A stretch of DNA of 64,000 nucleotides from assembly GCA_016176465.1 (NCBI GenBank), contig JACOXD010000006.1, forward strand, positions 71,878-135,877, written 5' to 3'. Below the pieces are notes generated by a model. The model saw nothing but the letters and a program-made list of their open reading frames with translations. It did no database searches and was not told where the DNA came from. Positions within the stretch are counted from its first letter, which is position 1, and each line of letters opens with the position of its first letter. A program made the position numbers and the translations under genes. Below, one piece after another: positions 1,235 to 30,681 of this stretch. The stretch comes from Candidatus Daviesbacteria bacterium. Its GTDB lineage: Bacteria > Patescibacteriota > Microgenomatia > Daviesbacterales > UBA10151.

Positions 1235-2263
1235 CTATTTTTTAGATACACTTCTTTTATATAAATCCAAATTTTCTAAAGCCATTCCTGTGCCTAAAAT
1301 AACTGACAAAAGTGGATTCTCAGAAATATGACAAGGAACCCCTGTTTCCTCAGTCATCAACTTATCAAGGTTACTCAGTAAAGATGTACCTCCTGACATT
1401 ACTATTCCTTTATCAATAATATCTGAGGCTAGCTCAGGTGGAGTTTGTTCTAAAACTCCTTTAACAGCGCCAATTATTTTTCTGACGGGATCGGAAATAG
1501 CCTCAGTTATCTCTACAGTAGATAAAACGATTGTCCTTGGCAAACCTGTTGGAGAATCTCTTCCCCTAACTTCCATCTTTTTTACCTCTAGCTCTTTAGG
1601 CAAAATAGCACTACCAATCCTGACTTTAATCTCCTCTGCTGCCCGCTCACCAATTATTAAGTTGAATTTTTTCCTAATATAGTTTTGGATTGCCTCATCA
1701 ATTTTATTTCCTCCAACTCTGACACTACTATGAACTACCACTCCGCCCAAACAAATCACTGCTGCCTCTGCTGTACCTCCACCAATGTCAACAATCATAT
1801 TTCCTGATGGGTTAGCAATGGGAATATTTGCTCCAATAGCTGCAGCCAGTGGTTCATCTATTAGATAGGCAGTTTTAGCTCCAGCAGATAAAGTTGCATC
1901 AAGCACTGCTCTTCTTTCAACAGAGGTAACGCCAGCAGGTACACAGACCATTACTTCTGGTTTTAAAAACCGCATAGAACCCAATACTCTGTCTATAAAA
2001 TACCGAAGCATCGCTTCTGTGATTACATAATCAGCAATAACCCCATCTTTCATCGGACGGGAAGCCATAATATTACCAGGAGTCCTACCTAACATTTCCT
2101 TCGCTTCATTGCCTACTGCTAAAACTTTATTATCATCAGTAGAAATTGCTACAACAGTAGGCTCATTTAGAACAATACCGCTACCTGCTAAATAAACTAA
2201 GCTATTGGCAGTACCTAAATCTATTCCTATACGCTTTGAAAGATTAAACATAATCTTTGTCAT
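1235..2263 (-). CDS. mreB: Rod shape-determining protein MreB (actin-like ATPase)
   Basis: Contains IGIDLGTANSLVY, DIGGGTAE and GGTSLL, the classic MreB phosphate and adenosine motifs. The true start is probably the second Met (MFNLSK) near 2251. The first ATG (ATGACA) is the terminal TGTCAT of an adjacent palindromic repeat. Confidence 0.9.
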   Translation of the reverse strand: MTKIMFNLSKRIGIDLGTANSLVYLAGSGIVLNEPTVVAISTDDNKVLAVGNEAKEMLGRTPGNIMASRPMKDGVIADYVITEAMLRYFIDRVLGSMRFLKPEVMVCVPAGVTSVERRAVLDATLSAGAKTAYLIDEPLAAAIGANIPIANPSGNMIVDIGGGTAEAAVICLGGVVVHSSVRVGGNKIDEAIQNYIRKKFNLIIGERAAEEIKVRIGSAILPKELEVKKMEVRGRDSPTGLPRTIVLSTVEITEAISDPVRKIIGAVKGVLEQTPPELASDIIDKGIVMSGGTSLLSNLDKLMTEETGVPCHISENPLLSVILGTGMALENLDLYKRSVSKK

Positions 2264-2340
2264 TCTGATGGTCCACTGGACCAGAAGAATCTAATGAGAT
2301 CCTTCCTCCCTAAAAGGGGCCCGTGCCCTCAGGATGACAA
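2259..2340. repeat. Palindromic mini-element copy A (TIR TGTCATTCTGA ... TCAGGATGACA with internal hairpins)
   Basis: Carries terminal inverted repeats tgtcattctga/tcaggatgaca and the inner palindrome ggtccactggacc. It shares its architecture with copies at 8008, 8499 and 9932. Confidence 0.7.
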
Positions 2341-2444
2341 CAAAACTGAAGAAAGTATATTTTTGTTGTCAACTTAACGCTATGAACTATACTCTAACTG
2401 AAGACCTACTCACAAGACATGCAAAGTGGATCAAAAAGGAACAA

Positions 2445-3656
2445 TTACTTTAGGTTTATACCATATAAATTGGGGCGTTCTGCTGTGGGAATTGGGAAAA
2501 AGGTAATTATTGCGAGTCTTGAGCCATCAGGCCATGCATAAACAGAGTTAATATCAAAGGTTCCTGCATAAATCACATGATTATTTCCCCCATCAAATTC
2601 AATTACGGAAATTTTATTCTCATCTACTAAGACCAGGTGAAGTGAATCAGGTAGCCATAAAGCTTGATAGCTCTCTGGCAGAGTAAAGGTTTCTCTTTTT
2701 TTTAAGTCAACAATCTTAAATTTTTTCTTTTGAGGTGTATTTGATTTCTCACTTTCCTCAGCTACTTTATTTTCAGTAAGCAACAAACTTTGAGGTTCTA
2801 CTTGCTCCAAACAATTTTCTTTATCCTCACAGATTAAAAACTTAGTTTCATCTGGTGCCCATTTCACCAAAGCAGATGATGATGCTATCTTTTGTAAATT
2901 AAGATCTTTTATAGATTGGATTCTAGCCAAATCCTTAGTACTTTTTTCCTCTTCCCAACTTGATAAAGTAGGCTGAAGAATTGGGGTAATATCTCTTGGT
3001 GATTCATTCAATCTATCATCTTCTAAAAGCAAAGTCCTATCAGGCAGCGTTACCATAATTTGGCTTGAATCAGGAGACCAACGAATCTTCGCTTGGCTTA
3101 AATTTATTCCTGATTGTGAAACCATAATTTGGTGTGGCTCATTAGCTCTTGCAAAAGCAATTGGCCTTTCAGACATTGTCCAGACCCAAATGCCACTCTT
3201 TTTGGGAGGAGATGAGGCAACGTCTGAATCAACTCCATCTGGGACGACAAAGACCAGCTTTTGGCCATCAGGTGATAGTATAGAATTCTCAATACCATTA
3301 TAAGTTAGGGGGAAAATACTAGGGATTGCTGGGAATAACCTCGCTTTAATTTCTGTAACTAACCCTTCCTTTACCTCAAGCTCTTTTTCCCAAGGAATAT
3401 AGCCTTCTTTAATAATCCTAACTTTATATTTTTTGGGGACCAAAGAGTTGATATTAGCATTGGTGGCTGTAGATAAATGCCCATCTAAATAAACTGATGC
3501 CTGGTCTGGAATAGAAGTAATAGACATAATTCCTGTACCGGAAAAAGTACCCTTTTCTGGAGAAAATCTATATCCCTTGGCAAAAAAAACTGCCCCTCCT
3601 GCTATTAAAGCAGTAGCTACAATAAACAAAATCGTGAAGAAAAATCTTCGATTCAC
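2445..3656 (-). CDS. Membrane-anchored PEGA-domain protein with a beta-propeller-like C-terminal region (hypothetical)
   Basis: Has an N-terminal TM helix and a PEGA-like block (SVYLDGHLSTATNANINSLVPKKYKVRIIKEGYIPWEKELEV). The remainder resembles a TolB/WD40 repeat-like extracytoplasmic domain. Confidence 0.45.
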   Translation of the reverse strand: MNRRFFFTILFIVATALIAGGAVFFAKGYRFSPEKGTFSGTGIMSITSIPDQASVYLDGHLSTATNANINSLVPKKYKVRIIKEGYIPWEKELEVKEGLVTEIKARLFPAIPSIFPLTYNGIENSILSPDGQKLVFVVPDGVDSDVASSPPKKSGIWVWTMSERPIAFARANEPHQIMVSQSGINLSQAKIRWSPDSSQIMVTLPDRTLLLEDDRLNESPRDITPILQPTLSSWEEEKSTKDLARIQSIKDLNLQKIASSSALVKWAPDETKFLICEDKENCLEQVEPQSLLLTENKVAEESEKSNTPQKKKFKIVDLKKRETFTLPESYQALWLPDSLHLVLVDENKISVIEFDGGNNHVIYAGTFDINSVYAWPDGSRLAIITFFPIPTAERPNLYGINLK

Positions 3657-3694
3657 AAATTAGATTGTACAATTTTAGATTAGCAAATACAAAG

Positions 3695-3766
3695 TCGGGG
3701 ACCAGGGAATTGAACCCTGTACCTCTACGACCCGAACGCAGCGTTCTACCGATGAACTAGTCCCCG
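3695..3766 (-). tRNA. tRNA-Pro (anticodon CGG)
   Basis: Hand-folded cloverleaf: acceptor CGGGGAC/GTCCCCG with C1-G72, D-stem GTTC/GAAC, anticodon stem CTGCG/CGTAG with loop TTCGGGT (CGG), T-arm CAGGG-TTCAATT-CCCTG, discriminator A, no encoded CCA. Confidence 0.8.
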
Positions 3767-3809
3767 CGCAATCCAAATTATATCCGATTTTGTTAAAATA
3801 CACTTACTC

Positions 3810-3882
3810 GCCCCTGTAGCTCAGTAGATAGAGCAGCTTCGTCCTAAGAAGTTGGTCGTGGGTGCAACTCCCGCCAGGGGTG
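3810..3882 (+). tRNA. tRNA-Arg (anticodon CCT)
   Basis: Hand-folded cloverleaf: acceptor GCCCCTG/CAGGGGT with a G1-U72 wobble, D-stem GCTC/GAGC, anticodon loop GTCCTAA (CCT), T-arm GTGGG-TGCAACT-CCCGC. The T-loop is atypical (G at position 55), so confidence is moderate. Confidence 0.6.
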
Positions 3883-3905
3883 CTTAACTCTGCTATACTT
3901 AATTT

Positions 3906-5018
3906 ATGAGTGATGATGGATCATCTGAAGGATCTTCCCCTCCTCAACTAAAGAAACATTTAACCAGGCGGCAATTCTTGGGTGCAACTGTTTTAGGGGG
4001 AGCGCTAGGAGCCGGCATGACAAAAGTGGGAGTACCTCAAGCTGTTGAAAACACATTTAAAGGAGCTAATTTTTTTGGAAAACTACTAGGAGCGTTTAAG
4101 AATAGGCGAAGCCTTTCTACGAATAGAGCTATAGTTGAACAGCCTAGACAACAGCAAGTACCTTCTCAAGAAGTTATTCTTTTATCAGCTAGAGAAGTAA
4201 ATGAGGCAATGAGTTTTTTTGGGCTAAATCCACAAAACAAGGACCAATTTATAAACCGTGTTGGTAAAGAGATAGTAGCTATGGCTAATAGACCATTTTT
4301 TGAGTCTGAAATAAAGCAAACCCTTGTCTGGCAGGACCAAGTAAAAACAGAGGTCCAGGTAGTTTGTGAAGATTTACCTTCAGATGAGCAAGAGCAATGG
4401 GTAAAGTTAATGCTTGGACTAATTTTCGTTGAAAGTAAAGGAGATTTGGAAGCGGCTTCTCCTTTGGGAGCACAAGGGCTTTGTCAAATTAAAGATGATA
4501 GAGCAAAAGAGATATATAGAAAACTAAAAAAAGATGACCTTTGGCCCAAAGAAGAATATAATTTGCTTAATCCACAAGATAACATCAGATTAGCTATTTA
4601 TATATTAAGAGATAACAATCCAATTAAGAGTTTGTCTTTAGCTTTTTACAACCTAGGCTCTAGAGTGATGATTAATAGTATGCAGGAGTATGCTAAAAGT
4701 CTTTACAGACAAGATCCATCTCTAGATCGAGAGTATCATGATGTAAATACAAACTTTACAACTTGGGGTCTTAGACAAGGTGAAGAAATCGCCACAACAA
4801 GGTACGCCCGGCAATTTAATATTTCCTTCTATGACTTGCTCTCCTCAAAACCGGCTAAAGATGCTTTAGTTAAAAGATATAATAACGAAGATGGCTCAAG
4901 TTTCCAGTATGGGGAAGATGACTTAACTTTTGTGGACAAGGTTATAGCTGCATCAATCATGTTGTTTTCAACCCCAACCAAAACTCAAATATCTGAGTCT
5001 GTAGGGAACCAGAGTTGA
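3906..5018 (+). CDS. Secreted lytic transglycosylase-like (SLT/lysozyme-like) protein with twin-arginine signal peptide
   Basis: Tat motif TRRQFLGATVLGGALGAG near the N-terminus. The SLT catalytic block FVESKGDLEAASPLGAQGLCQI has the E-S...GLxQ pattern. Confidence 0.5.
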   Translation: MSDDGSSEGSSPPQLKKHLTRRQFLGATVLGGALGAGMTKVGVPQAVENTFKGANFFGKLLGAFKNRRSLSTNRAIVEQPRQQQVPSQEVILLSAREVNEAMSFFGLNPQNKDQFINRVGKEIVAMANRPFFESEIKQTLVWQDQVKTEVQVVCEDLPSDEQEQWVKLMLGLIFVESKGDLEAASPLGAQGLCQIKDDRAKEIYRKLKKDDLWPKEEYNLLNPQDNIRLAIYILRDNNPIKSLSLAFYNLGSRVMINSMQEYAKSLYRQDPSLDREYHDVNTNFTTWGLRQGEEIATTRYARQFNISFYDLLSSKPAKDALVKRYNNEDGSSFQYGEDDLTFVDKVIAASIMLFSTPTKTQISESVGNQS

Positions 5019-5509
5019 ATTTCCCTATCTGCTTCCTCCAAAGTTCCTGAGGCGTGGACTAAATTATAGACTGCTCTACCCTCTGCATTGGCTTTATCAA
5101 ATGAATCCTCTCCAAAATCTCCTCTAATAGTTCCTCTTGGAGATAAAGATGGATCAGTTTTTCCAGTTATCTTCCTAGCCAATGAAACTGCACCAGGCCC
5201 TTCTAGAATCATTTTGATAATTTTGCCTGATAGAAGAAATTTTTGTAAATCTTTAACTATCTTGACACTTTTTTGGTATTTCTCCTCAATTTTCTCCTCA
5301 CTCCATCCTGTGATATCTACATGACCTAAATGAATTAGGTAATCTCTATTATCAAGTTGATAATGCTCTCTTACAGTAGGTTCATCAGCAGTCAGCATTA
5401 CCAACTTAGAAACTTTTAGACCTCTTTCTTCAAACCTTTTGATAATATCCCCAATTAAATTTCTTTTAACACCATCAGGTTTTATAAGGACTAAAGTTTG
5501 CTCATTCAT
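4985..5509 (-). CDS. ndk: Nucleoside diphosphate kinase
   Basis: N-terminal TLVLIKPDGV, the active-site His block NLVHASG (NxxHxSD-like), RGDFG, and C-terminal EIQLWF. It carries an internal insertion relative to canonical Ndk. Confidence 0.75.
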   Translation of the reverse strand: MNEQTLVLIKPDGVKRNLIGDIIKRFEERGLKVSKLVMLTADEPTVREHYQLDNRDYLIHLGHVDITGWSEEKIEEKYQKSVKIVKDLQKFLLSGKIIKMILEGPGAVSLARKITGKTDPSLSPRGTIRGDFGEDSFDKANAEGRAVYNLVHASGTLEEADREIQLWFPTDSDI

Positions 5510-5548
5510 AATCGCGATATGTGATACGAAATACGTAATATGTCAATA

Positions 5549-5576
5549 ACTTATCGCTTATCACTTATCTCTTATC
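5549..5576. repeat. Four tandem 7-bp repeats CTTATCN (GATAAG x4 on the minus strand) just upstream of the ndk start
   Basis: The sequence reads cttatcg cttatca cttatct cttatct. A TTGACA hexamer lies on the minus strand between the repeats and the ndk ATG. Confidence 0.5.
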
Positions 5577-6607
5577 TCGATATCCCGAACATTGTATCTT
5601 CCGTCCTCAAAAATATCAACCATGATAAACCTTGGCGACTGAGGGTTTCTTGTTGAGGTTACTGCACCTGATACAATCATTGGAATATTATTTTTAGGTT
5701 CAATGTAACTTGAGAAAAAGTGGGTATCTCCAGAAAAAACCGCATCTACATTATTTTCCTTAAATAACGACATCAAATGCTCTGCTTGATTTTTTAATTT
5801 TCCATCAAGTTTTCCCATCACATGATCTGAAGATGGATGATATAAAGGAATAGCAGTCATTATAAAAGTCAGCTTTGAATCTCCTTCTTTAGCCCTTATT
5901 AGCTCATCTTCTACCCATTTCATCTGTACCTCATCTACTCCTAAGTAGTTATCAGCATTATCAAGTAAAATAAACCTTACTTTATCATACGCAAAAGATG
6001 AATAATCAGATCCAAATACCTCTTTGTAATTAGTAGTGGGAGGTAATTTCTTTTCTCTGGCTTCCCAAAGATCGTGGTCACCTGGGATTACATAATAAGG
6101 TAGTCCAAAAGTATCAAACTGTAACTTAGCATCTCTAAGATCGCTAATAGATCCAACATCAGTGTAATCTCCTAAACCAATTACAAATTTTGCGCCACTT
6201 CCCTTTGCCTGTTTCAATGCCTTATCTAAATTGCCATTGTCATTGTGGGAATCAGATACTACTCCAAAGCTAAAAGTTAGCGGCGAGCCAGATGTTTTAT
6301 TAGAACTACTTTGAGCTAGATTGTCATTAGATAATATCTTCTTGGCTTTATTTATTGAATCTTGGGGATTGGCAGTCAAGATATTTTTGACCAATGTATA
6401 AGCATCTTCAGATTGTAAGATATTATTAAAAATAGATTGTGGATTGGCAGATAATGGATCAATCCCGGAGAAACTTCTTATTGCCTGATAAATACCTAAA
6501 ACCAAAACAGAAAGGATAACTAAACTCAAAAACAGCCTGAAAACACCAAACAATTTACCAAAAAGAGAAAATCCCATCCCTCTATGGGCAGTATGTCTTC
6601 TAAACAT
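5561..6607 (-). CDS. Membrane-anchored calcineurin-like metallophosphoesterase
   Basis: N-terminal TM helix, then metallophosphatase motifs GVVSDSHND, GLGDYTD and GDHDLW (the GDxHG / GDxxDRG / GNH(D/E) pattern). Confidence 0.7.
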   Translation of the reverse strand: MFRRHTAHRGMGFSLFGKLFGVFRLFLSLVILSVLVLGIYQAIRSFSGIDPLSANPQSIFNNILQSEDAYTLVKNILTANPQDSINKAKKILSNDNLAQSSSNKTSGSPLTFSFGVVSDSHNDNGNLDKALKQAKGSGAKFVIGLGDYTDVGSISDLRDAKLQFDTFGLPYYVIPGDHDLWEAREKKLPPTTNYKEVFGSDYSSFAYDKVRFILLDNADNYLGVDEVQMKWVEDELIRAKEGDSKLTFIMTAIPLYHPSSDHVMGKLDGKLKNQAEHLMSLFKENNVDAVFSGDTHFFSSYIEPKNNIPMIVSGAVTSTRNPQSPRFIMVDIFEDGRYNVRDIEIRDK

Positions 6608-6649
6608 ATTTAAATTATCTCAAATCTAAAAGGTCAAATGTCAAATTTC

Positions 6650-8410
6650 TCACATTTTTTTAGGAGCATTAATACCTAACAAATCTAAACCTGATCTAAT
6701 AGTCTCAACAACTTTAGCAGTTATTGCTAATCTTAGATTAGATTTCTCGGACTTAATTATGGGAAATTTAGTATAAAAAAGATTAAATGCCTTTGCCAAA
6801 TTTAGTAGGTACTCGCCAATTAAATTTGGTTTAAGCTCTTTGCCAGCTTGAGCTATTATTGAATCATAGTATTCAGTTAACCTTAGAATTTCCCTCTCCT
6901 CAAGCTCTAAATTTATACCTTGGGGATTTAATTCTTTATCTCCACTATATTTAGACTGTTCTAAAACTGAATTAGCGCGTGCGTGGGTATATTGCAAATA
7001 AGGTCCGCTGTCTCCTTGTAGGGAAACTGATTTTTCCAAGTCAAATATCACATTTGTTTTTGGGGAGTATTTTAAATAAGCAAACTTTATCGCACCTAAG
7101 GCTACAACTTTTGCCACTTCTTCATCTACTTTTAGCCTGTTCTCTCTCATAATATCTTTAACTCGATCAATAACCATATTTAATATATCATCAACTGTTA
7201 TAACCTCTCCGCTGCGGGATGACATTTTTCCTTCTTTAATATCTACCATTCCATAAGATAGGTGAAATTTTTTGCCTTTTAAGTGAGGAAAAAGCATTTC
7301 AACAGCCTTAAAAACTACTCGGAAGTAACCTTCTTGTTCAGCTCCAACAATATGGATGCTTTTGTCATAATTAAATGTATCAAACTCTAACTTAGCTAAT
7401 CCTGTTTCTTTGGCCTCATAGGTAGGGTTTCCTGCAGCTGTTATGAATACTCTATTGTGTAAACCATATTTTTCCCCTGGGAAGATAATAGCTCCTTTAT
7501 CCTCTTCAAAAACTTTACCTACATTAGCCAGTACCAGTTGCCTACCTTCCAACTCCACTTCGCTCTCAAAAAAACAGTGGTCGTATTTAATACCAAAAAG
7601 ATTATAAACAGGCTCAAAATAAGCTAGACTCCACTCCCTGGCCAGCTGATAAATCTCCATCAAATTTTGATCTTTAGCATAAAGCCTATTATTAAGATCA
7701 TCTATCTCTACTTTAGCTTCTTTATCCTCATCATATGCTTTATTACCTTGCGCATAAGATTGGCCTAAAAATTTAGCTTTTTCTTCATGAGATAATTCAC
7801 CTTTTGGTAAACCCAATTTTTCAATACCCCAAATAGCCTTAGCTATATGCAAACCAATATCCCCTTGGTAATTGGCCCTAAATACTTTATTCCCCAAACT
7901 CTCTAGTATTCTGGAAAGGCTTTCTCCTAAGAAAAAAGTTCTTAGATGACCTATGTGAATCTCTTTAAGGGGGTTAACATGACCATACTCAATTAGATAT
8001 TTTTTCTTGTCATCCTGAGCGCGGGCCCCCGAAGGGGAGAAGGATCTATTTTTCAGATTCTTCTCCGGCGAAGCCGGATCAAGAATGACAGACTCAAGCA
8101 AAATTTCATCCTTTATAAAAAAATTAATAAAACCTCCCCCAGCAACTTCTACTCTTTCTAAATAAGTTGGATGGCCTAACTCTTTTAAAATTTGATTAGC
8201 AACATCCATTGGAGACTCGCCTCGCTTAGCACTTGGCGAAGCGGGTTGCTCACTTTTTCCTTGCTTTTGTTTAGTAAGTTGTAAAGCCACATTCGTAAAG
8301 TAGTCTCCAAATTTGGGGTTTTCTGGAATAGATATAAATATATCAGTTGTTTTTAACCCTAATTTAGAAATTGCTTTTTGCAAATCTTTTTCTAATTGCA
8401 CTTTTATCAT
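6650..8410 (-). CDS. argS: Arginyl-tRNA synthetase
   Basis: Class I motifs HIGHLR and MSSRSG (the KMSKS equivalent) plus the ArgRS anticodon-binding C-terminus. It carries an in-frame palindromic-repeat insertion at residues ~108-135. Confidence 0.9.
   Translation of the reverse strand: MIKVQLEKDLQKAISKLGLKTTDIFISIPENPKFGDYFTNVALQLTKQKQGKSEQPASPSAKRGESPMDVANQILKELGHPTYLERVEVAGGGFINFFIKDEILLESVILDPASPEKNLKNRSFSPSGARAQDDKKKYLIEYGHVNPLKEIHIGHLRTFFLGESLSRILESLGNKVFRANYQGDIGLHIAKAIWGIEKLGLPKGELSHEEKAKFLGQSYAQGNKAYDEDKEAKVEIDDLNNRLYAKDQNLMEIYQLAREWSLAYFEPVYNLFGIKYDHCFFESEVELEGRQLVLANVGKVFEEDKGAIIFPGEKYGLHNRVFITAAGNPTYEAKETGLAKLEFDTFNYDKSIHIVGAEQEGYFRVVFKAVEMLFPHLKGKKFHLSYGMVDIKEGKMSSRSGEVITVDDILNMVIDRVKDIMRENRLKVDEEVAKVVALGAIKFAYLKYSPKTNVIFDLEKSVSLQGDSGPYLQYTHARANSVLEQSKYSGDKELNPQGINLELEEREILRLTEYYDSIIAQAGKELKPNLIGEYLLNLAKAFNLFYTKFPIIKSEKSNLRLAITAKVVETIRSGLDLLGINAPKKM
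8008..8090. repeat. Palindromic mini-element copy B, inserted in-frame inside argS
   Basis: TIRs tgtcatcctgag ... gatcaagaatgaca with inner hairpins gggcccccgaagggg and tccggcgaagccgga. The argS ORF reads through it as ILDPASPEKNLKNRSFSPSGARAQDDKKKY. Confidence 0.75.
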
Positions 8411-8498
8411 AGTTTAATGATAACATTCGTAACATAATTATCTAAGCACTAAAATTTGTTTTCTCATATATTCCACTAGTCAATTTTAAGAGTTGTCC

Positions 8499-8587
8499 AG
8501 TCATGCTGAGCGAATTTGTCATTCTGAGCCGAAGGCGAAGAATTTAGTCTAGAGATTCTTCCCAGGCTTTGCCTGATCAGAATGACA
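8499..8587. repeat. Palindromic mini-element copy C (composite, with an extra degenerate half-unit) in the argS-argG spacer
   Basis: The sequence reads agtcatgctgagcgaatt + tgtcattctgagccgaaggcgaagaattt ... agattcttcccaggctttgcctgatcagaatgaca. Confidence 0.7.
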
Positions 8588-8596
8588 TTTTCCTTT

Positions 8597-9845
8597 TTAC
8601 TTACCACCAATCTGCTTTGCTAGCCTCATTTGCAGAGAATAAATTTCTATAAACCCTGCTGAAGCATTCACATTAAATGAATAGCCTCCCAAATTAGTAA
8701 ATGAGGTATGATCTAAACCATAAGGAGACTGCATTGCCACCACATCTACTTTACCTTTATAAAGTTTAAGGGTAACTTCTCCAGTCACCTTCTCATTTAC
8801 AAAGTCATTAAAAGTATTTATTGCCTCCATAACAGGATCAAACCATAAAGCACCATAACAAAGATAGCCCCATTTAGTATCAAGTTCTTGCTTTAGCTCA
8901 TTTAAATTCCTGGTAGAAACATATTTTTCCAATGCTTTATGAGCCTCAATCAATACATGTCCTGCAGGCATTTCATAAACTCCACCATTCTTAACTCCAA
9001 CTAATCTATCCTCAAACATATGAACCACCCCTACCCCATGTTTTCCTGCTAACTTGTTGAGCTTTGCTATCAACTGAGAAAGTTTCAACTTTTGGTCATT
9101 TAAAGCCACAGGAATTCCTTTTTTAAAGGTTACTTTAATTAGTTCCTCCTTATTTGGTGCGTTTTTAGCCAAAGTATAGGTAGTTAGGAATTTTTCAATG
9201 GGAGCTATTAGTTGTGGCTCTTCAATTTCTCCACCTTCCCAGGTCATTCCCCACATGTTGTCATCAACTGAGTAGGGAAAATCTAATGATGCTGGTACAG
9301 GAATTCCATTAGCTTTGGCATATTTAATTTCTTCATTCCTATCCATTGCCCATTCCCTGACAGGTGCAATTATTTTCATTTTAGGATCAAAAGTTAAAAT
9401 ATAGCCTTCAATCCTGACTTGATCATTACCCTTACCAGTACAACCATGGGCTATAGCATCAGCTCCTACTTTTTTAGCAATCTTAACTGAATTTTTAGCT
9501 AACACCGCTCTTCCCATTGGCGTAGAAAGATAGTAATTACCTTGGTATGAACCATTAGCCTTAATTCCTTTGGCAATATAATTCTCTGCAAACTCATCTT
9601 TTAAATCTAAAACTAAAGCCTGCTTTGCTCCAAACTTTAATGCTTTTTGTTTAATGGCTTCCAAGTCATCATGTTGCTGTCCTAAATCAGCGGTTAAAGT
9701 TATTACTTCACACTTATACTCATCCTGAATCCATTTAAGCATTACTGAGGTATCCAAACCTCCTGAATAGAGCAAAAGTACTTTTTTAACTTCTCCTATT
9801 TTTCCCTCATATGAGGCTACTTTGATATATTTAGTATCATTTTTC
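8597..9845 (-). CDS. argG: Argininosuccinate synthase
   Basis: N-terminal PP-loop KKVLLLYSGGLDTSV, then GCTGKGNDQVR and the ArgG-type C-terminus. The tracked ORF runs to 9937 through repeat copy D (MTIVSPPSRLLGRSFEGRARLRRARRE...). The more likely start is GTG at 9845, preceded by GGAGGTG (MKNDTKYIKV...). Confidence 0.8.
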
Positions 9846-10937
9846 ACTATTCTCACCTCCCTTCTTGCCCTCCGAAGCCTTGCTCGGCCTTCGAAGCTCC
9901 GGCCAAGGAGGCGCGAAGGAGGGCTTACTATTGTCATCCTGATGGTCCAATGGACCAGAAGGATCTAAATACAGATTCTTCGCTCCGCTCAGAATGACAC
10001 TCGCCACTTTTTTGTATGCCTCTCTGAAAGGCATCCCCTTACTAACCAATTTCAATGCTTTTTCTGTGGCATATAGCTCTTCAGTCATAGCTTTATCTAG
10101 AATCTCTTTATTGGGAGTTAAGCCCTTAACTAACAAACTAGCCACTTTTAGCGAGCCTAAAGTTAAATCCAAACTTTCCATAAATGGCTTTTTGCTATCT
10201 TGGAAATCCCTATTATAGCCTGAAATTAAATTTGTAGATAAAGAGACAATTTGAACATAATTTCCTAAGACTAGGTGGACCTTGGCTCTTAAAACCTCTG
10301 CAACATCAATGTTTTTCTTTTGTGGCATGATACTGCTTCCAGTAGTTAGGTTCCCTGCTACAGAAAAAAAGTTAAATTCAGATGTGGTAAATAACAATAC
10401 ATCTGATGCAAACTTATTAATATCCTGCAAGATTGTAATTAGGCAAGAAAGTATTAATTCTTCAAATTTTAGCCTTGAGTGCTGGCAATAAATGGGATTT
10501 TCTTGGACTTTAGCAAAGTTAAGTAGTTTTGCACTTAATTGCCTATCTATTTTAATAGGAATTCCATAACCTGCTCCTGATCCATAACCTGCTCCTGAAC
10601 CTAAGGGAGATTGGTCAATCAATTTATAGATAGTATCCAGATATATCAAATCATCACTTAATGAATCAACAAAGCAATCAGCCCACAACTTTATTGAGCT
10701 TGGCATTGCTTTTTGCATATGGGTATAACCAGGCATAGGAATATCTTTATGTTTCTTCCCAAAACTCTTAAAGCTTGTTTTTAGGTTTTCCAATTCTTGT
10801 TTCACTAAATTTAGCTGCTCTTTTGAATAAAGCCTTAAGGCTGTTAAAACTTGATCGTTTCTTGATCTGGCTGTATGGATTTTTTTCCCTGCTTCGCCAT
10901 AATTTTTTGTTAAGTAATCCTCTATCTTTGTATGCAT
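9837..10937 (-). CDS. argH: Argininosuccinate lyase, atypical (N-terminal region missing or compressed; C-terminal tail reads into repeat D)
   Basis: Signatures TARSRNDQV, GSSIMPQKKN and SPLGSGAG identify ArgH. Upstream of the reported Met the frame continues only as ...KLWKQGKFNLELGDEDMHTK to a TGA. A separate short ATG frame gives MKKLWQKGN followed by a stop, so about 70 N-terminal residues typical of ArgH are absent. Confidence 0.7.
   Translation of the reverse strand: MHTKIEDYLTKNYGEAGKKIHTARSRNDQVLTALRLYSKEQLNLVKQELENLKTSFKSFGKKHKDIPMPGYTHMQKAMPSSIKLWADCFVDSLSDDLIYLDTIYKLIDQSPLGSGAGYGSGAGYGIPIKIDRQLSAKLLNFAKVQENPIYCQHSRLKFEELILSCLITILQDINKFASDVLLFTTSEFNFFSVAGNLTTGSSIMPQKKNIDVAEVLRAKVHLVLGNYVQIVSLSTNLISGYNRDFQDSKKPFMESLDLTLGSLKVASLLVKGLTPNKEILDKAMTEELYATEKALKLVSKGMPFREAYKKVASVILSGAKNLYLDPSGPLDHQDDNSKPSFAPPWPELRRPSKASEGKKGGENSEK
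9932..9999. repeat. Palindromic mini-element copy D at the argH 3' end / argG 5' end, with degenerate GC-rich repeat debris upstream (about 9850-9930)
   Basis: The sequence reads tgtcatcctgatggtccaatggaccagaaggatct ... agattcttcgctccgctcagaatgaca. The left half is nearly identical to the left half of copy A. Confidence 0.75.
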
Positions 10938-11045
10938 ATCCTCATCCCCTAGCTCTAAGTTAAATTTCCCTTGTTTCCAAAGCTTGAGAATTTCAATTAC
11001 CTTTTTGCCATAACTTTTTCATAATTTTTTCCTTTCTTAGCTTTT

Positions 11046-11100
11046 TTAAAACAAAAAAGCCCTTGTCTGCTCACCTAAAAATAGATGAACAAACAAGGGC
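11046..11100 (-). terminator. Rho-independent terminator-like hairpin (minus strand) followed by a U-run
   Basis: Minus-strand GCCCTTGT(T)TG...CAGACAAGGGC stem, followed by TTTTTTGTTTT. Confidence 0.45.
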
Positions 11101-11368
11101 CTTCTAAAAGGCGGTACCACCTTGTATTTAATTTCCCATTAAAAATCCACCTTGCGGTGGAGCTAACTGCCTATGAGAAATTCTCATTTATAGCGCTCCG
11201 TTGCCGACACGCTTGCTATCTTTTACAGTTTTGCCTCTGTCATGGTATTGTCTCGATAAATAATCGGACCTGACCCATGCTGCTTGTCTACTGCGGTAGA
11301 CTTAAACGCATTTAAAATATTAAATTGTCTATTTAGTATAACATAAATTTTTTACTTGTCAATAACTA

Positions 11369-11764
11369 CTATGGGTTCAATCTCAAAAAGAGTGGCCATT
11401 GCCCTTTAAGCTGCTTACTAAATCCCATTTTTTCAAACAAGCTAATCTTATCTGTAACAGCTAGCACCTCATAGATTTCTTTAGCTTTAGCTTCATTCAC
11501 ACAAGCTTGGATTAGTTTAGACCCTATCCCCATTCCTTGATATTTAGGAAGTACTACTAGTGAGCGGACCTCTGATAGTTTTTTGTTATATATTTCCAAA
11601 CTGACACATCCAGCAACTTCTTTATCTTCTACCCAAACATAGAAGGAACTAAGCACTTGCTTTATCTCTGATTTAGGCCTTTTCAAAACTTTACCCTTTT
11701 TGGCTGCATCTGAAATTAATTTATAAATTGAGTCTAAATCTTCTATTTTAGCTTTGCGCAACAT
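11369..11764 (-). CDS. GNAT family N-acetyltransferase
   Basis: GNAT motif A: VVLPKYQGMGIGSKLIQ (Q/RxxGxG/A). The protein is 131 aa. Confidence 0.7.
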   Translation of the reverse strand: MLRKAKIEDLDSIYKLISDAAKKGKVLKRPKSEIKQVLSSFYVWVEDKEVAGCVSLEIYNKKLSEVRSLVVLPKYQGMGIGSKLIQACVNEAKAKEIYEVLAVTDKISLFEKMGFSKQLKGQWPLFLRLNP

Positions 11765-14115: not shown

Positions 14116-16484
14116 CTAGCTTATTAGACTAATTATTTTTCCTGGGACATAAATAACTTTTTTAGGATTTTTCCCTCCCAAAAAATTTTGTACTTTTGGA
14201 CTTTTAAAAACTAATCTTTCTATTTCTGCTTGTTTTGAAATTAAGTCATTACTTACGGTAATTACATCTCTTACTTTTCCATTAACTTGGATAATTATTT
14301 TAATATTTTCTTCTTCCAAAAATTTTTCATCTACTTTTGGCCAAGATGATAAATGGATAGATTGTTTCTCCCCCAGCATTTCCCAAAGCTCTTCAGTAAT
14401 ATGAGGTGCAAAAGGAGAAAGCATTACTAAAAAGTTCTTATACTCATCCAAAGATACTTTTTCTTTCCTGGATAAATGATTTAGCCACTCCATCAAACCT
14501 GCAACCGAGGTATTATATTTGAGCTGATCAATATCTTTTTCTAACTTTTTAATAAATTTAGCCATGATTCTTTGATCATCTTGGGATGGTTTGGTATCTT
14601 TGCTAACCTTTTCAAATAATCCCCAGACTCTTTGCAGAAAATGATAGACTCCGTTTATTCCTTCTGCTTTCCAGGGGGCGACTATATCTGATGGTCCTAT
14701 GAAGGCTAAATAGACCCTCACAGCATCTGCTCCATATTCTTTAACTTGATCATCAGGATTAACTACATTTCCCTTAGATTTGCTCATTTTTTGGCCGTCA
14801 GTACCCAATATTGTTCCATGATGAATCCTCTTTCTGGTAAACTCCTCAAAAGATATTAGACCTATGTCTTTAAAAAACTTAGTAAAATAACGGGAATAGA
14901 GAGCATGTCCTAGCGTATGTTCTTCACCACCTATGTATAAGCCAACAGGCATCCACCTCTTAATTAGCTCTTTATCAAATATAAACTTGTCATTATGTGG
15001 ATCTAAATATCTAAAAAAATACCATGAAGAATCCATAAAAGTATCCATTGTTTCTGCCTCTCGTTTGGCATCCCCACCACAATTTGGACATTTTACATTT
15101 ACCCAACCTTCTGCAGTGGCTAAAGGTGGTTTACCTTGAGGTTTATAATCAACTTTATAGGGAAGCTCCACTGGTAATTGATTTTCAGGAACAGGTACTA
15201 ATCCACAATTAGGACAGTTTATAAAAGGAATGGGAGTTCCCCAATACCTTTGTCTGGATATAGACCAATCATGAAGATGATATTGAGTCTGTTTTTGTCC
15301 AAGTTTATTTTTCTCTAAGTAATCAGTAATCTTCTCTCTAGCCTCACTGGAGGGTAGGTTAGCATATTTATCACTATTAACCAGAACTCCTTCGCCTGTA
15401 TAGGGAAGCTTGGTTTCTTTGATATCTACTTCTTCAATTACTTTAGTTATGGGTAAGTTAAACTTCTTTGCAAACTCAAAATCACGTTCATCGTGAGCAG
15501 GCACAGCCATCACTGCACCAGTTCCATAGCCTGGTAAAACATAATCAGCTATCCAGACAGGTATATCTTCACCTGAAAGAGGATTTTTAACATATGAACC
15601 GCTAAAGACTCCTGTTTTATCTTTATTTTCCTTTCGTTCAAGTTCAGTTTTCTTTTTAGCTTTTTCTAAGTAAACCTCTGTTTCTTTCTTTTGATTTCTT
15701 GTTGTATATTTTGATACTAATTGATGCTCGGGTGACAAAACTACAAAGGTTGCCCCAAAAATTGTATCTACTCTGGTTGTAAAAACCTCTATATCTTCAA
15801 ATTTGATTAAACTGCCTTCTGATTTACCAATCCATTTGTTCTGTGCTTCAATTAAAGCTTTAGGATAGCTAGCTTGAGGCGCCTTTTCATCCCAAATTAG
15901 CCTATCTGCATAAGCTGTTATTTTACCTCCTTTTGTACTATCTCTGTTCCGCACCTCCAACATTTACCTGCTTCAACATTCTCATTAGCTAATACAGTTT
16001 GACATGAAGGACACCAGTTTGATAGAGTTTTTCCTCTATAAACTAGCCCCCTTTCGTACATCTTTAAAAAGATCCACTGATTCCACTTGTAGTATTCTGG
16101 CAGACATGTAATGGTAAGTGAACTCCAGTCAAATGAGAAGCCTCCAGTTTTAAACTGTTTACTCATTTGTTCAATATTAGCTAAAGTCCAATCTTGGGGA
16201 TGAATTCCCCTCTGTATTGCTGCATTCTCTGCAGGTAAGCCAAAAGCATCATAGCCATTTGGAAAAAAAGTATTATAGCCTTGTAGTCTTTTGAATCTAG
16301 CTAAAATATCCCCATAATTGAAGGTGTACCAGTGACCAATATGTAAATCTCCAGAAGGATAGAGCAGTTCCACTAAAACATAGTAATTATTTTTTTTTGA
16401 GGCCAAATCAGTTTCGTATAATTTATCTTCTTCCCACTTTTTTTGCCATTTAGGTTCAATTTGGGACGGAATATATTTTTTCAT
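14116..16484 (-). CDS. leuS: Leucyl-tRNA synthetase, interrupted by an apparent -1 frameshift near 15935 (two ORFs: 15918..16484 and 14116..15963)
   Basis: The N-terminal ORF has HIGHWY and CWRCGTEIVQKEVK. The C-terminal ORF continues KITAYADRLIWDE, the editing domain, and KMSKSKGNVV. The junction lies in the run GAGGTAAAATAACAG; adding one A restores EVKITAYADRL. Confidence 0.85.
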
Positions 16485-17264: not shown

Positions 17265-18380
17265 TTATTTAAGAATTCCTAGAGGATTGACAGCAATACC
17301 TTTGAACCTAATTTCTAAATGAAGATGTATCCCTGTTGATCTGCCCGTTGAGCCCATTTGTCCTATTACCTGGCCACGGCTGATCTTTTCTCCAACTGAT
17401 ACATAGATATTTGATAAATGACCATATAAGGAAGAATAACCATTTCCATGATCAATAACTACCCTATTACCATAGCCATAACCATCGGGCCAGCCAGCCA
17501 CGACTACAGTTCCCCCATCTGATGAAACTATTCCAGGTGCGCTTCTATTAGCAATATCTATACCAGGGTGATACCAAGCAAAATATTGAGAGACTTCTCC
17601 TCCTGCTGGCCAGACAAAATTACCTCCTCCTGGAGCTGAGAAGGCTGGAGATGATGGTCCCTTAGCCAAATATTGAGGTTGAGGTCTTTTTGGTGCTTTA
17701 ACCTCTGGAGGATAACCATCAGGAATAATAATAACTTGACCTACTTTTAGCTTTAAGTCATCAGGTACATTATTAAATGGAAAATCCAAAACAGCCTGGG
17801 AAGAAGCAGAATACTTCTTAGCAACTCCTTCTAACGTTTCTCCTTCCTTAACAGTGTGGGCCACCCCAGTTAATGGTAAAATTTTTAGTTTATCTCCTGG
17901 TTTGACTGAATTTACATTATCTAAATTATTGGCCCATTTAACAGTATCTGAGCTAATTTGATACTTTTCAGCTATTTGTGATACCGTTTCTCCGCTTTTT
18001 ACTTCATATTCAATTATTTCTGAGCGGGGTTTATCAGAAACAATAGTATTCATATCTATTAAAGTATTTAAACTTATACCTGAAGCATTTGGATCAAATG
18101 TTTCAATTAAGCGAGGATCTTGATCAATCATTCCCGGGAAAGTAGTAGCAACAATATCATTGCCTCCAAAAATTCCAGAACTGACTAGCCCTATTGAAGC
18201 TAAACCCACCATAGAAGCATGCCAGACATGGCGTTGAAATTTACCACGTCTATGCATTAAAAGATTAACTGAGTGGTTTTTAAAACTTTCAAAGCGGACT
18301 GCGGCTTTTTTAGTCTTACGTCCCTGGTAAATTACCAGGAATTTAAGCAAATCTGTAAGATCATCTTTTGCAGAATTCAT
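17265..18380 (-). CDS. Peptidoglycan hydrolase: two LysM domains + M23 (LytM-type) metallopeptidase
   Basis: LysM blocks YEVKSGETVSQIAEKYQISSDTV and HTVKEGETLEGVAKKY. M23 motifs HPGIDIA, SLYGHL and GSTGRSTGIHLHLEI (HxxxD ... HxH). Confidence 0.8.
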   Translation of the reverse strand: MNSAKDDLTDLLKFLVIYQGRKTKKAAVRFESFKNHSVNLLMHRRGKFQRHVWHASMVGLASIGLVSSGIFGGNDIVATTFPGMIDQDPRLIETFDPNASGISLNTLIDMNTIVSDKPRSEIIEYEVKSGETVSQIAEKYQISSDTVKWANNLDNVNSVKPGDKLKILPLTGVAHTVKEGETLEGVAKKYSASSQAVLDFPFNNVPDDLKLKVGQVIIIPDGYPPEVKAPKRPQPQYLAKGPSSPAFSAPGGGNFVWPAGGEVSQYFAWYHPGIDIANRSAPGIVSSDGGTVVVAGWPDGYGYGNRVVIDHGNGYSSLYGHLSNIYVSVGEKISRGQVIGQMGSTGRSTGIHLHLEIRFKGIAVNPLGILK

Positions 18381-28014: not shown

Positions 28015-30681
28015 ATGAAAAAAAGAATAATCAACACCACTATTACTTTTTCCCACTTAATTATCTTCTCTCTACTTTCTGCTTTAGTATCTTTTATTTA
28101 TTGGATCTGGGCTGGCAAAGATTATATTTTTGCTAAAACTCCAATAGGTGGAGATTATTTTAATGCCCTTACTTACGCTCAGTTTTTTAAAGATCACTTA
28201 AATCTACCACCCCAAGGTTGGGTACCTTTTTGGAATGAGGGTTCACCAATAATTAGTGGTTATCCTTGGGCTTTTTTTTATCTGCTTTATCCTCTAACTA
28301 AATATTTTGATCTTCCAACAGCCATGGATTATCTTTCCATAGCTTTCTTATTGCTATTTTTTATCTTCTCGCTCACCTTTTTTTATCAAGCTGCAAAAAA
28401 CTGGCTGGTTGCATCCGCTTTTGTGTTAATTCTTCTAATCACCCGTGCTAGTTATTATCCGTTAATGACTGGTGGATTTATCTCATCAGCTTCAGCCATG
28501 TGGTATTTACCAGCTATCTTATTTTTAATTCTAAAGTTTGCAGACTCAAAAAAACAATTTTTTTTAATTCTCGCTTCAATTTTAGAAGGTTTATCATTAA
28601 TTCACCATGCTCCGACCTCTTTACTTATGGTTATCGCTCCAACTACATTAGTATTAGCCTTACTCCCCAACCAAGGAAATATTAAAAAAAGATTTTTTAC
28701 TACCGTTAAATTTCTGATCATCTCTTTTTTAATTGGAGCAATGAGTTTATATACTGTAATCTTACAAGCCTATCTAGGATCAGGTTCCGGAGCCTGCGCA
28801 AGTCCCCAATGTTGGGGAATTTACCCGAAACATTTAATAACTTGGTTAAATCCCCTAACTTTAGGAATCATAGGGGGAGGTGTAATGCTAATCTTAATAA
28901 CCCGAATCATAAAAAGAGATTCTAAATCAGTAGAGTTATTGTTACCTTTACTCCTTGGATTTGCTTTTTTTGTCTTCTACGCAATGCTGGCAAAACTAGA
29001 ACTGATAAACGGCTTCGCCAACGTTATCTTTCCTACTAGAACTTTTTGGGCCGCAAATTTATTTGCATTGGGTATAGGGGCAATATCTTTTAGAATTTTT
29101 AATCTCAAATTTAGGAAAATTGGCCATATTTTAGCCTTAATTATCCTTATTGGCATAGCTATTCCGACTTATCTTTATTCTGTTCCTCCTGACATCCACC
29201 ATGACTTTACAGCTACAGATCCTTTGGATGTAGCCATCTATACAATCCCTAAATACCAAACAAAACAAGTCTCTGAATTAGTAGCGGACTTTGTACCACT
29301 TAATGAAGCAAACTGGAGGCTTGATTCATTTAACCCAGGACTCATACATTGGTGGAACTATGTGGCAACTACTCCCTCAGTGAGGGGGTATTCAAACCAC
29401 CCTGTTGGGAAACTTCGCGATTGGCAATATTTTTTACAAACATCAACCAGAGATCCTCAGGATGAAAACCAAGAATTAATTAAAAACAGAGCTCATTTTT
29501 TGATTGATGCTTTTGGGATAGGATTTAGAGATAATTCTGTAGCAAGTTACCCAATTTCCATCCTTTCTGATCAAAGCCTAATTACTAAATCTTCCCCCCA
29601 AATGCGCAGTTTCTCCTGGATGCAGCTTTCACAGGATAAATTTAGCCCTATTATTTATCCTACTAACTCCCCTGCTGTTTTGTTTATTGGAGACGAAGGA
29701 GGTTATGAGAATTTTTTAAGGGCAATTGCATTAGTTAATTTAAACTCAAAAGTTTTAACTCCGGTCAGAGGTCCAAACGACATAGGAAAAATATCACTAG
29801 ATGAATTAAACCAGTTTGATTTAGTGGTAGCTTATGGCTATAAAGGCAATAACTTCGACAAGATCGCTAGATATGTTAAAAATGGTAAAGCTTTATTTAT
29901 TGACACTGCCTCGGGAAGTGACCAGACACTTAAGAATACTGCTGATATTTTTCCACTTACTAAACTTTCTAAAAGAGAAGTTAAGGAAAGCTGGAAGTCT
30001 GTAATTGTAGGGCGGGAATTTGCTTTGAATGTTGATTCTAAGCTATTTAGCCCCTTCTCTTTTCAAGGAGGTAATTGGAAGTTAAACCTAGCTTCAGAAT
30101 CTAACCTAAGATCTTGGGGTAAAACCATTGTTAAACATAATCAAAATGTATTGATAGCAGGGGGGCAATTAGAAAAAGGTAAAGTTATCTGGAGTGGAGC
30201 CAATCTTTTCTATCATTTGGTTACTAATAATAACTTCGAGGAGGCTAAATTAATTAAAAACATTTTTGATTTTCTTTTACCAGAAGTGCAAGTTAAACCT
30301 GAATATAGCGTTAATCGAATTTCCCCGGAGAAAGCTATTATCGAGGCTAAAAATATCAGGGGTATTTACTTTAAAGAGAATTTTGACTTGGGATGGAGGG
30401 CAAAAATGAATGATCAATCTTTGAAAATTTATCCGGCTGGTATGGGTTTTATGTATGTACCTCTTAAGAAAGAAGTTAAAGAAGCTACCATCTCTTTAGA
30501 TTATGGGGGAAGTTTACTAGCCTGGTTGCTCTTTTTGATAAGTATCATCTCTTTTGTTTTTACCCTAATCTATTTACTACTTCCAAAACCTTTTATACTT
30601 ATATCCAGCGCCATCCAAAAACCAATTATAGAAAGATTTAATAAAAAAGTTAAGGAGTTACTTAAAGAAGAAGATGAGTAA
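28015..30681 (+). CDS. Large polytopic membrane protein, YfhO-like (GT-C-type glycopolymer glycosyltransferase candidate), paralog 1
   Basis: About 13 predicted TM helices in the first ~400 aa, then a ~430 aa extracytoplasmic domain, a C-terminal TM (LLAWLLFLISIISFVFTLIYLL) and an acidic tail KELLKEEDE. It is paralogous to 37972..40845 and 40818..43706. Confidence 0.5.
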   Translation: MKKRIINTTITFSHLIIFSLLSALVSFIYWIWAGKDYIFAKTPIGGDYFNALTYAQFFKDHLNLPPQGWVPFWNEGSPIISGYPWAFFYLLYPLTKYFDLPTAMDYLSIAFLLLFFIFSLTFFYQAAKNWLVASAFVLILLITRASYYPLMTGGFISSASAMWYLPAILFLILKFADSKKQFFLILASILEGLSLIHHAPTSLLMVIAPTTLVLALLPNQGNIKKRFFTTVKFLIISFLIGAMSLYTVILQAYLGSGSGACASPQCWGIYPKHLITWLNPLTLGIIGGGVMLILITRIIKRDSKSVELLLPLLLGFAFFVFYAMLAKLELINGFANVIFPTRTFWAANLFALGIGAISFRIFNLKFRKIGHILALIILIGIAIPTYLYSVPPDIHHDFTATDPLDVAIYTIPKYQTKQVSELVADFVPLNEANWRLDSFNPGLIHWWNYVATTPSVRGYSNHPVGKLRDWQYFLQTSTRDPQDENQELIKNRAHFLIDAFGIGFRDNSVASYPISILSDQSLITKSSPQMRSFSWMQLSQDKFSPIIYPTNSPAVLFIGDEGGYENFLRAIALVNLNSKVLTPVRGPNDIGKISLDELNQFDLVVAYGYKGNNFDKIARYVKNGKALFIDTASGSDQTLKNTADIFPLTKLSKREVKESWKSVIVGREFALNVDSKLFSPFSFQGGNWKLNLASESNLRSWGKTIVKHNQNVLIAGGQLEKGKVIWSGANLFYHLVTNNNFEEAKLIKNIFDFLLPEVQVKPEYSVNRISPEKAIIEAKNIRGIYFKENFDLGWRAKMNDQSLKIYPAGMGFMYVPLKKEVKEATISLDYGGSLLAWLLFLISIISFVFTLIYLLLPKPFILISSAIQKPIIERFNKKVKELLKEEDE

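Follow-up and report, generated by a model that had tools for sequence, protein, structure and literature searches.

Elements and genes at the locus

The stretch of DNA analysed here (the window) comprises 64,000 nt from Candidatus Daviesbacteria, a member of the candidate phyla radiation (CPR/Patescibacteria), with a GC content of 32–38%, and it carries four short palindromic elements, A to D, in and around the genes argH, argG, argS and mreB. The arginine-tRNA ligase (ArgRS) encoded in the window is 100% identical to a Daviesbacteria protein in NCBI, and all its close homologues are from Daviesbacteria or Patescibacteria. A sequence-only reading had placed four copies of one element at 2259–2340, 8008–8090, 8499–8587 and 9932–9999; all of them are present, with coordinates correct to within 1 nt, as four inverted pairs of half-units (A 2258–2339, B 8008–8090, C 8517–8587 and D 9932–9999). 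The elements are 68–83 bp long, have inverted-repeat ends and are without coding capacity. A regular expression for the half-unit found exactly eight units in the 64 kb, all in the four pairs and none elsewhere. In the window, TGTCATYCTGA has seven exact matches against 1.4 expected, and eight matches at up to one mismatch, a number reached by none of 100 shuffles. GAAGRATCT has 10 matches against 2.0 expected, and 7 of these 10 lie inside the elements. The genes and units of the locus are the following.

First 20 kb, minus-strand genes: leuS, comEA, comEC, GNAT acetyltransferase, argH, argG, argS, metallophosphoesterase, ndk, PEGA-domain protein, mreB, galE
2258–2292, plus strand: A-left; TGTC tag, ATTCT/AGAAT stem, GA/GA loop, inner hairpin TGGTCCA-C-TGGACCA, CT tail
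2297–2339, minus strand: A-right; ATCCT/AGGAT stem, longer GC-rich inner segment, ATGACA terminus in the PEGA–mreB intergenic region
8008–8047, plus strand: B-left; within the argS coding sequence
8055–8090, minus strand: B-right; inner hairpin TCCGGC-TTCG-CCGGA, within argS
8499–8516, plus strand: truncated, degenerate head of a third unit (AGTCATGCTGAGCGAATT) abutting element C, the ninth head in the window
8517–8545, plus strand: C-left; inner GCC-GAA-GGC, in the argG–argS intergenic region
8553–8587, minus strand: C-right; outer end 9 nt downstream of the argG stop codon (8597–8599)
9932–9966, plus strand: D-left; near-identical to A-left, its terminus giving the false ATG of the argG open reading frame (ORF)
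9973–9999, minus strand: D-right; minimal form with inner GC-GGA-GC, at the point where the argH ORF stops resembling argininosuccinate lyases

Each unit folds as a separate hairpin

Units are built in the order TGTC, ATYCT, GA, a variable segment, GA, AGRAT and CT(N). All eight window units fold singly: a 4-nt tag stays unpaired, an outer stem of 5 bp follows, then come a 2 × 2 internal loop of tandem G·A and an inner hairpin, and a short tail ends the unit. The fold of A-left (tag, 5 bp, 2 × 2 loop and 6-bp hairpin) has −14.0 kcal/mol. The G·A loop renders one strand the better hairpin, and in 8/8 units the more stable of the two strands is the one with the tag. Inner segments are 7–23 nt long in the window units and usually self-complementary. 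Inner segments fold better than shuffles (−4.6 vs −2.2 kcal/mol; 39% at p ≤ 0.05). A-left and D-left, rightly described before as nearly identical, differ at 3 of 35 positions. One difference lies in the loop, and the other two, T7→C and A31→G, fall on outer-stem partners (T7:A31 to C7:G31) and therefore form a compensatory pair.

Units from other genomes came from a scan with the exact pattern through one genome per species (596 Gb), which gave at least 120 loci. Among the matches listed, to which the counts below refer, 120 short loci hold 176 units, and 116 of the 176 have an inverted partner beyond the tail. The search pattern permitted all four base combinations at the Y:R position of the stem, and this position is complementary within the unit in 171 of 176 units (C-G in 89, T-A in 82, mismatched in 5). 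Partners of one dimer carry the same Y in 28 of 63 dimers from other genomes, which is the chance level. Whole dimers fold well (z = −2.5 to −4.5), and their minimum free energy structure is predicted to pair the two heads and the two tails; this long-hairpin or cloverleaf fold was rejected as the conserved structure because base sharing between partners is at chance. Pairing within units and its failure between partners indicate that the conserved object is two adjacent, separate hairpins. The elements had been described as one long imperfect palindrome with TGTCAT...ATGACA termini: the two inverted half-units stand, but the palindrome does not stand as a conserved structure.

Partner units that lie outside the selection by the pattern also close with five Watson–Crick pairs in 45% of cases, against 7% when shuffled, and their nine stem sequences all start with AT. 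The tags of these independent partner units are TGTC (30) and CGTC (9), and their tails CTC (20), CTT (5), CTG (4), CTA (4) and CCA (1). The tail is CTN in 7/8 window units and TTA in C-left.

No Rfam covariance model, those of hammerhead and other ribozymes included, matched any element, either with the gathering threshold or with E ≤ 10 as cut-off. Inspection of the sequences led us to reject CTGA...GAAG as a hammerhead or k-turn: the CUGANGA core is absent from most units, and no 3-nt bulge stands beside the G·A pairs. The reading as intrinsic terminators was also rejected, with the T-run absent and none of the elements flagged.

Element B in argS and turnover in Daviesbacteria

The host of element B has the following coordinates.

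6650–8410, minus strand: argS (arginine-tRNA ligase, 586 aa); ORF intact, HIGH and MSSR motifs kept

Element B is translated in frame within ArgRS as SVILDPASPEKNLKNRSFSPSGARAQDD. The insert, of 28 residues, is located in the linker that joins the N-terminal domain to the HIGH motif, and its flanks align to orthologues and to ArgRS structures in the PDB; at the site itself, just before HIGH, the alignment to solved ArgRS is gapped and weak. The element is missing from 17 Daviesbacteria ArgRS orthologues. B is an in-frame insertion in argS, and of all features it is the one most like a Rickettsia palindromic element (RPE).

In the alignment, ArgRS orthologues bear other in-frame inserts at other sites, and the four that were examined as DNA (argS of loci L123, L124, L125 and L126) all contain TGTC-type units. 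L123 has an in-frame head-to-head (HH, tag-outside) dimer with ATTCCCGC/GCGGGAAT, L124 an HH dimer with ATTCTGG/CCAGAAT, and L125 a single unit in the linker shared with B. In L126 the units form a dimer, and a further 30-nt mini-palindrome lies in the loop of its left unit, which has the head GGTC. The units in L123 and L126 have 8–9-bp stems and 4-nt loops. Lone units thus exist, in L125 and also in L127. The unit shared by A-left and D-left recurs at four metagenome loci of 37–40% GC; three of these copies have a partner, each a different unit, and the fourth is a singleton.

The window argS contains a second, unrelated in-frame insert at 8213–8247 (minus strand), a GC-rich mini-palindrome of ~30 nt, CCCGCTTCGCC-AAGTGCTA-AGCGAGGCGAG, which encodes QPASPSAKRGES. 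It is found at the same site in only 2 of the 17 orthologues (P0004/L121 and P0009), and it is also the mini-palindrome nested in the loop of the TGTC-type unit in L126 argS (2824–2853).

Occurrence in other genomes and in phages

Further copies exist, as the sequence-only reading of these elements as a family implied: the unit type occurs in many phyla and in phages. Among the matches listed, the genome scan covers at least about 20 phylum-level groups, including cultured Bacteroidota, and one Nanoarchaeota metagenome-assembled genome (MAG). The dominant inner segment of these units is the mini-hairpin GCGNAGC, which is unusually stable as DNA. The same pattern in IMG/VR gave at least 120 viral loci on contigs that encode terminase, portal and capsid proteins, and some units lie within structural genes of phages. 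Units can be closely spaced on a phage contig: L198 has 6 in 6 kb, and L171 has 6 in 10.6 kb. Observations on the viral loci L198, L171, L185 and L165 also include one family of phage ORFs of ~900 aa, without Pfam or PHROG matches, in which the units lie inside the ORF in several contigs.

Target-site duplications and linked genes

None of the four window copies has a target-site duplication (TSD), and flanking repeats of 1–8 nt in the 63 dimers from other genomes were at or below chance. The insertion flank shows a weak pyrimidine preference at −1. The absence of TSDs argues against a MITE (miniature inverted-repeat transposable element) of the DDE type and makes a classical MITE unlikely. 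HUH/Y1 enzymes, which act on single-stranded DNA (ssDNA) hairpins, leave no TSD. Of the earlier label 'MITE/REP-like', we accordingly keep the likeness to repetitive extragenic palindromes (REPs) and drop MITE.

No transposase, recombinase or HUH domain was detected by Pfam in the 54 window ORFs of ≥90 aa, which agrees with the earlier remark that there is no transposase. Moreover, all-against-all clustering of the ORFs in 120 genome loci and 120 viral loci gave no gene family travelling with the repeats; the only recurring neighbours in these 240 loci were ABC transporters, response regulators and phage head, portal and terminase (structural) genes.

Relation to CGTC-tagged REPs and other palindromic repeats

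The nearest described class is the superfamily of CGTC-tagged REPs, with families CGTC-1 to CGTC-4 (Di Nocera, De Gregorio and Rocco 2013, BMC Genomics 14:522, PMC3733652). According to that paper, the tag is often TGTC, the stem starts with A-T and T-A pairs, and a short unpaired tail has the consensus CCA. Most dimers are HH, many are heterodimers, some copies lie in frame within genes, and no transposase is known to go with the repeats (PMC3733652). The same paper equates RPE-4 with CGTC-4 and RPE-6 with CGTC-1, counts Neisseria dRS3 as CGTC-1, and covers five phyla but neither CPR genomes nor phages (PMC3733652). The window units share the main traits so described. All eight begin with TGTC, with the stem directly adjoining, all eight have the A-T/T-A stem start in ATYCT/AGRAT, and all four window copies are HH heterodimers; the short unpaired tail is present as well, but it is CTN here and CCA in the published consensus (PMC3733652).

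At the peptide level, the L123 unit TGTCATTCCTGCGAAAGCAGGAATCT would encode SFLRKQES, a peptide listed for Rickettsia conorii CGTC-1 copies (PMC3733652), and the Sulfurovum CGTC-2 peptide RHSELVSGS, which we back-translate as CGTCATTCTGAA...TTCAGGATCT, has the head and tail of the window units. Peptides of the VILS/LRMT type are not listed in the supplement (PMC3733652).

The elements had been called RPE-like, and this label is apt because their features match the superfamily in which PMC3733652 places RPE-4 and RPE-6. As with RPEs, palindromic repeats lie in frame in housekeeping genes and add 20–30 residues while the protein remains unbroken, as B does in argS, and the host genome is small, AT-rich and host-dependent. 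The host lineage is different, classic RPE-1 is longer (100–150 bp), and the tie is an indirect one, running through the superfamily of PMC3733652 rather than through RPE consensus sequences.

REPINs (REP doublets) and bacterial interspersed mosaic elements (BIMEs) resemble the window elements in their two inverted REP hairpins, short spacer, lack of TSD and proposed recognition of ssDNA hairpins. They differ in the tag, which is TGTC and not GTAG in 8/8 window units, and in that the partners here are usually different units and no REP-associated tyrosine transposase (RAYT) was found in the window. Neisseria dRS3 (ATTCCC-N8-GGGAAT) has the same tag and AT-initiated stem, and the ATTCCCGC...GCGGGAAT type is the one seen in the L123 argS orthologue. 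dRS3 is an integration target of filamentous prophages and flanks other repeats; no such prophage or repeat association was seen in the window.

The window units probably form a subtype, possibly a new one, that departs from the published description: an AT-initiated outer stem (ATYCT/AGRAT) leads into a tandem G·A loop that is conserved, and the inner hairpin varies. In the literature searched, no paper links REPs with Patescibacteria, and a literature search with sequence strings returned only unrelated primers and vectors. Within that literature, the class is not previously reported in the Daviesbacteria lineage.

Elements A, C and D and the neighbouring genes

Element A is located between the PEGA gene and mreB, with its outer end 6 nt upstream of the orthologue-supported mreB start (MFNLSK, at 2251). 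The first ATG of the mreB ORF, at 2263, is the ATGACA terminus of the element. Related genome L121 is without element A and has AATGACA ~9 nt upstream of the mreB start (L121 15905–15935, compared with window 2252–2263), at the same relative position as the A terminus; the match could be fortuitous, or the motif could be a remnant or a preferred target. Element C lies ~90–100 nt upstream of argS and, as given above, 9 nt past the argG stop. Element D lies between argH and argG, and its ATGACA terminus provides the first ATG of the argG ORF, at 9937; a GTG at 9847, preceded by the ribosome-binding site GGAGGTG, is the probable true start of argG. The earlier remark that the terminal ATGACA creates an artefactual ATG extending the mreB and argG ORFs was therefore borne out (2263 vs 2251; 9937 vs GTG 9847). 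The elements had also been said to sit exactly at the ends of housekeeping genes, and this is so for A, C and D, at or within 6–9 nt of gene boundaries, but not for B, which lies inside argS.

Element D is read as part of the following ORF.

9837–10937, minus strand: argH remnant ORF; last ~54 codons supplied by element D and the GC-rich stretch that follows

The ORF matches positions 81–391 of the 455-position TIGR00838 model, corresponding to residues ~85–395 of solved lyases (~460 aa), so that ~84 N-terminal and ~60 C-terminal residues are missing. Similarity to argH ends exactly at element D, and a fragment of the true argH N-terminus, MKKLWQKGN*, stands in another frame near 11020. From this sequence, argH looks like a pseudogene, a remnant truncated on two sides. 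The argH C-terminus had been thought to be translated from the element; the ORF does read through D, but argH is only a remnant (residues ~85–395). In a conserved loop, argH contains an in-frame tandem duplication, GSGAGY-GSGAGY (~10565–10605). A 71-nt imperfect palindrome of ~68% GC lies at 9859–9929, between D and the argG ribosome-binding site. Its fold is no more stable than those of shuffles (z = −1.2), and no copy of it was found in any fetched locus.

The GNAT–argH–argG block (8597–11764) is an insertion between comEC and argS in comparison with L121 (9927–10001), and elements D and C stand on either side of argG. The slot upstream of argS in which the window has this block is occupied by an arginase gene in L125 and L126. 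A strong terminator-like hairpin (~20 pairs, then a T-run) at 11056–11103 (minus strand) lies between the GNAT gene and the argH remnant, and a promoter-like, near-consensus site lies at 11362–11335.

On the minus strand, leuS (14116–16484) is broken into two overlapping ORFs (15918–16484 and 14116–15963). At their junction (~15915–15930) the residues expected between KEVK and KITAYADRL are absent and the frame shifts. The leuS orthologue of L121 is one ORF of 841 aa, and the split is either a real frameshift or an assembly error. L121 also has, in a glycosyltransferase gene (17602–17631), a tandem heptamer, CGTCATT three times and then CG, which repeats the motif of tag plus stem start. In the window, a perfect 16-nt palindrome, TTCGCCAGCTGGCGAA, is found at 170–185 in a GC-rich island just downstream of galE. 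Positions 20–64 kb are a large island of glycosylation and sugar-modification genes with lower GC, in which no TGTC unit was found (20000–64000) and long ORFs without Pfam match lie at 28015–30681, 37972–40845 and 55626–57248.

Discussion

We consider that the four loci are probably HH heterodimers of REP-type hairpin units of the CGTC/TGTC superfamily, non-autonomous selfish repeats in which the unit, and not the dimer, propagates. Alongside the observed anatomy, covariation, family features, presence and absence in orthologues, and lack of TSDs and of a linked transposase, we propose a mechanism for their spread. The hairpin unit would fold on ssDNA, on the tag strand, where the version with G·A pairs is more stable, and a trans-acting enzyme would cut and join beside the TGTC tag, leaving no TSD. 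For the type of enzyme, an HUH/Y1-type transposase may be the best analogy. The hairpin unit would be the propagating module and would re-pair with different partners. Copies would then persist at sites of low harm, such as A upstream of mreB, C downstream of argG and D at the broken end of the decaying argH, and B may persist in frame because the ArgRS surface linker that holds it is permissive. The side effects seen here are additional peptide segments, spurious start codons and hairpins that are stable in mRNA, and any effect at the RNA level is presumed.

Several observations weigh against this reading. All four copies are confined to 7.8 kb, and the related genome L121 (1 Mb) has no window-type unit in its syntenic 21.7 kb, so that activity may be old or local. 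In PMC3733652, the CGTC families have a fully paired stem of 8–9 bp and a 4–5-nt loop, whereas the window units have 5 bp, the G·A loop and a 7–23-nt insert, and thus they are no exact fit to the definition of the superfamily but extend it. The window and the 240 loci yielded no mobilising enzyme, which leaves the ssDNA/HUH step as an analogy; a transposase elsewhere in the source genome is possible, the search having spanned 64 kb of it. We estimate that chance alone could yield ~100 matches in 596 Gb, and the number of matches by itself therefore proves nothing. The matches are nevertheless real, on the grounds of 97% covariation within units, the dominance of GCGNAGC and the packing of 176 units in 120 loci with 116 of them partnered. 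Finally, a selfish element inherited vertically does not readily account for near-identical motifs in ~20 phyla, and a conserved host function could be behind them.

Such a host function could lie in the RNA, with the elements serving as operon punctuation, as stabilisers of mRNA 3′-ends, as RNase processing sites or as sites at which a conserved RNA-binding protein would recognise the tandem G·A loop, and with mobility secondary. The positions of A, C and D close to gene boundaries would suit this proposal, as would the fact that different phyla conserve the G·A loop and the outer stem, with compensatory changes, and the better folding of the tag strand. Furthermore, REPs lie mostly downstream of ORFs and are probably transcribed, according to PMC3733652. 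However, B is intragenic, orthologues hold units at several different intragenic sites, copies lie within phage structural genes, and copies are present or absent between related genomes; in addition, there is no Rfam match or terminator signature in the elements, and HH dimers show the same structure on both strands and so have no orientation relative to transcription. Elements A, C and D may have a role in stabilising or processing RNA, but such a role cannot explain B, the intragenic copies of orthologues or the copies in phage structural genes, and an RNA function as the main reason for keeping the hairpins is quite unlikely.

The other alternatives concern how the elements move. They may be true REPINs, moved by a RAYT whose gene lies in another part of the Daviesbacteria genome, in the way proposed for GTAG REPs. 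The pair of inverted hairpin units, with outer 4-nt unpaired tags and a short spacer, fits this description, and so do the strand asymmetry of the hairpin and the lack of TSD that HUH/Y1 enzymes predict. Yet the tag is TGTC/CGTC and not GTAG, no Y1/HUH domain was found in the 54 window ORFs or recurring near copies in the 240 loci, and, according to PMC3733652, the tyrosine transposase genes of CGTC-positive species are never flanked by CGTC repeats, a point that counts against the selfish-repeat reading as well. We therefore regard true REPINs as unlikely. Classical MITEs would be internally deleted copies of DDE-type insertion sequences (ISs) with TGTCATYCTGA as 11-bp terminal inverted repeats, and the size of 68–83 bp, the inverted-repeat ends and the lack of coding capacity would agree with this. 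The proposal is already largely refuted and highly improbable: TSDs are lacking at 4/4 window copies and in 63 dimers, single units exist (L125 and L127) and units swap partners, covariation runs within halves and not between termini, and no IS with these ends was seen in the window or in the fetched loci. Lastly, the units may be moved by no element-specific enzyme; the mover could be some widely shared activity, or one carried by phages, that acts on tandem-G·A DNA hairpins, and the loops would accept mini-palindromes as in L126. The occurrence of the 20-nt signature TGTC-ATYCTGA...GAAGRAT-CT in ~20 phylum-level groups, an archaeal MAG and phages, with no cognate transposase seen, may point in this direction, and we hold the idea as a speculative one with a small chance of being right. 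If it is true, the mobiliser that has long been missing for CGTC-type REPs would best be looked for in CPR genomes and their phages.

Under the reading as REP-type units of the CGTC/TGTC superfamily, our results have consequences for the annotation of CPR genomes, in which ATGACA termini make false start codons and in-frame copies inflate protein lengths. They also extend the range of CGTC/TGTC-tagged REPs, which include some Rickettsia RPEs and are described but mechanistically unsolved, to CPR and phage genomes, and the wide distribution together with the lack of a linked transposase sharpens the question of what mobilises the class. Moreover, an essential enzyme, ArgRS, has been remodelled by such repeats at several independent sites within one lineage.

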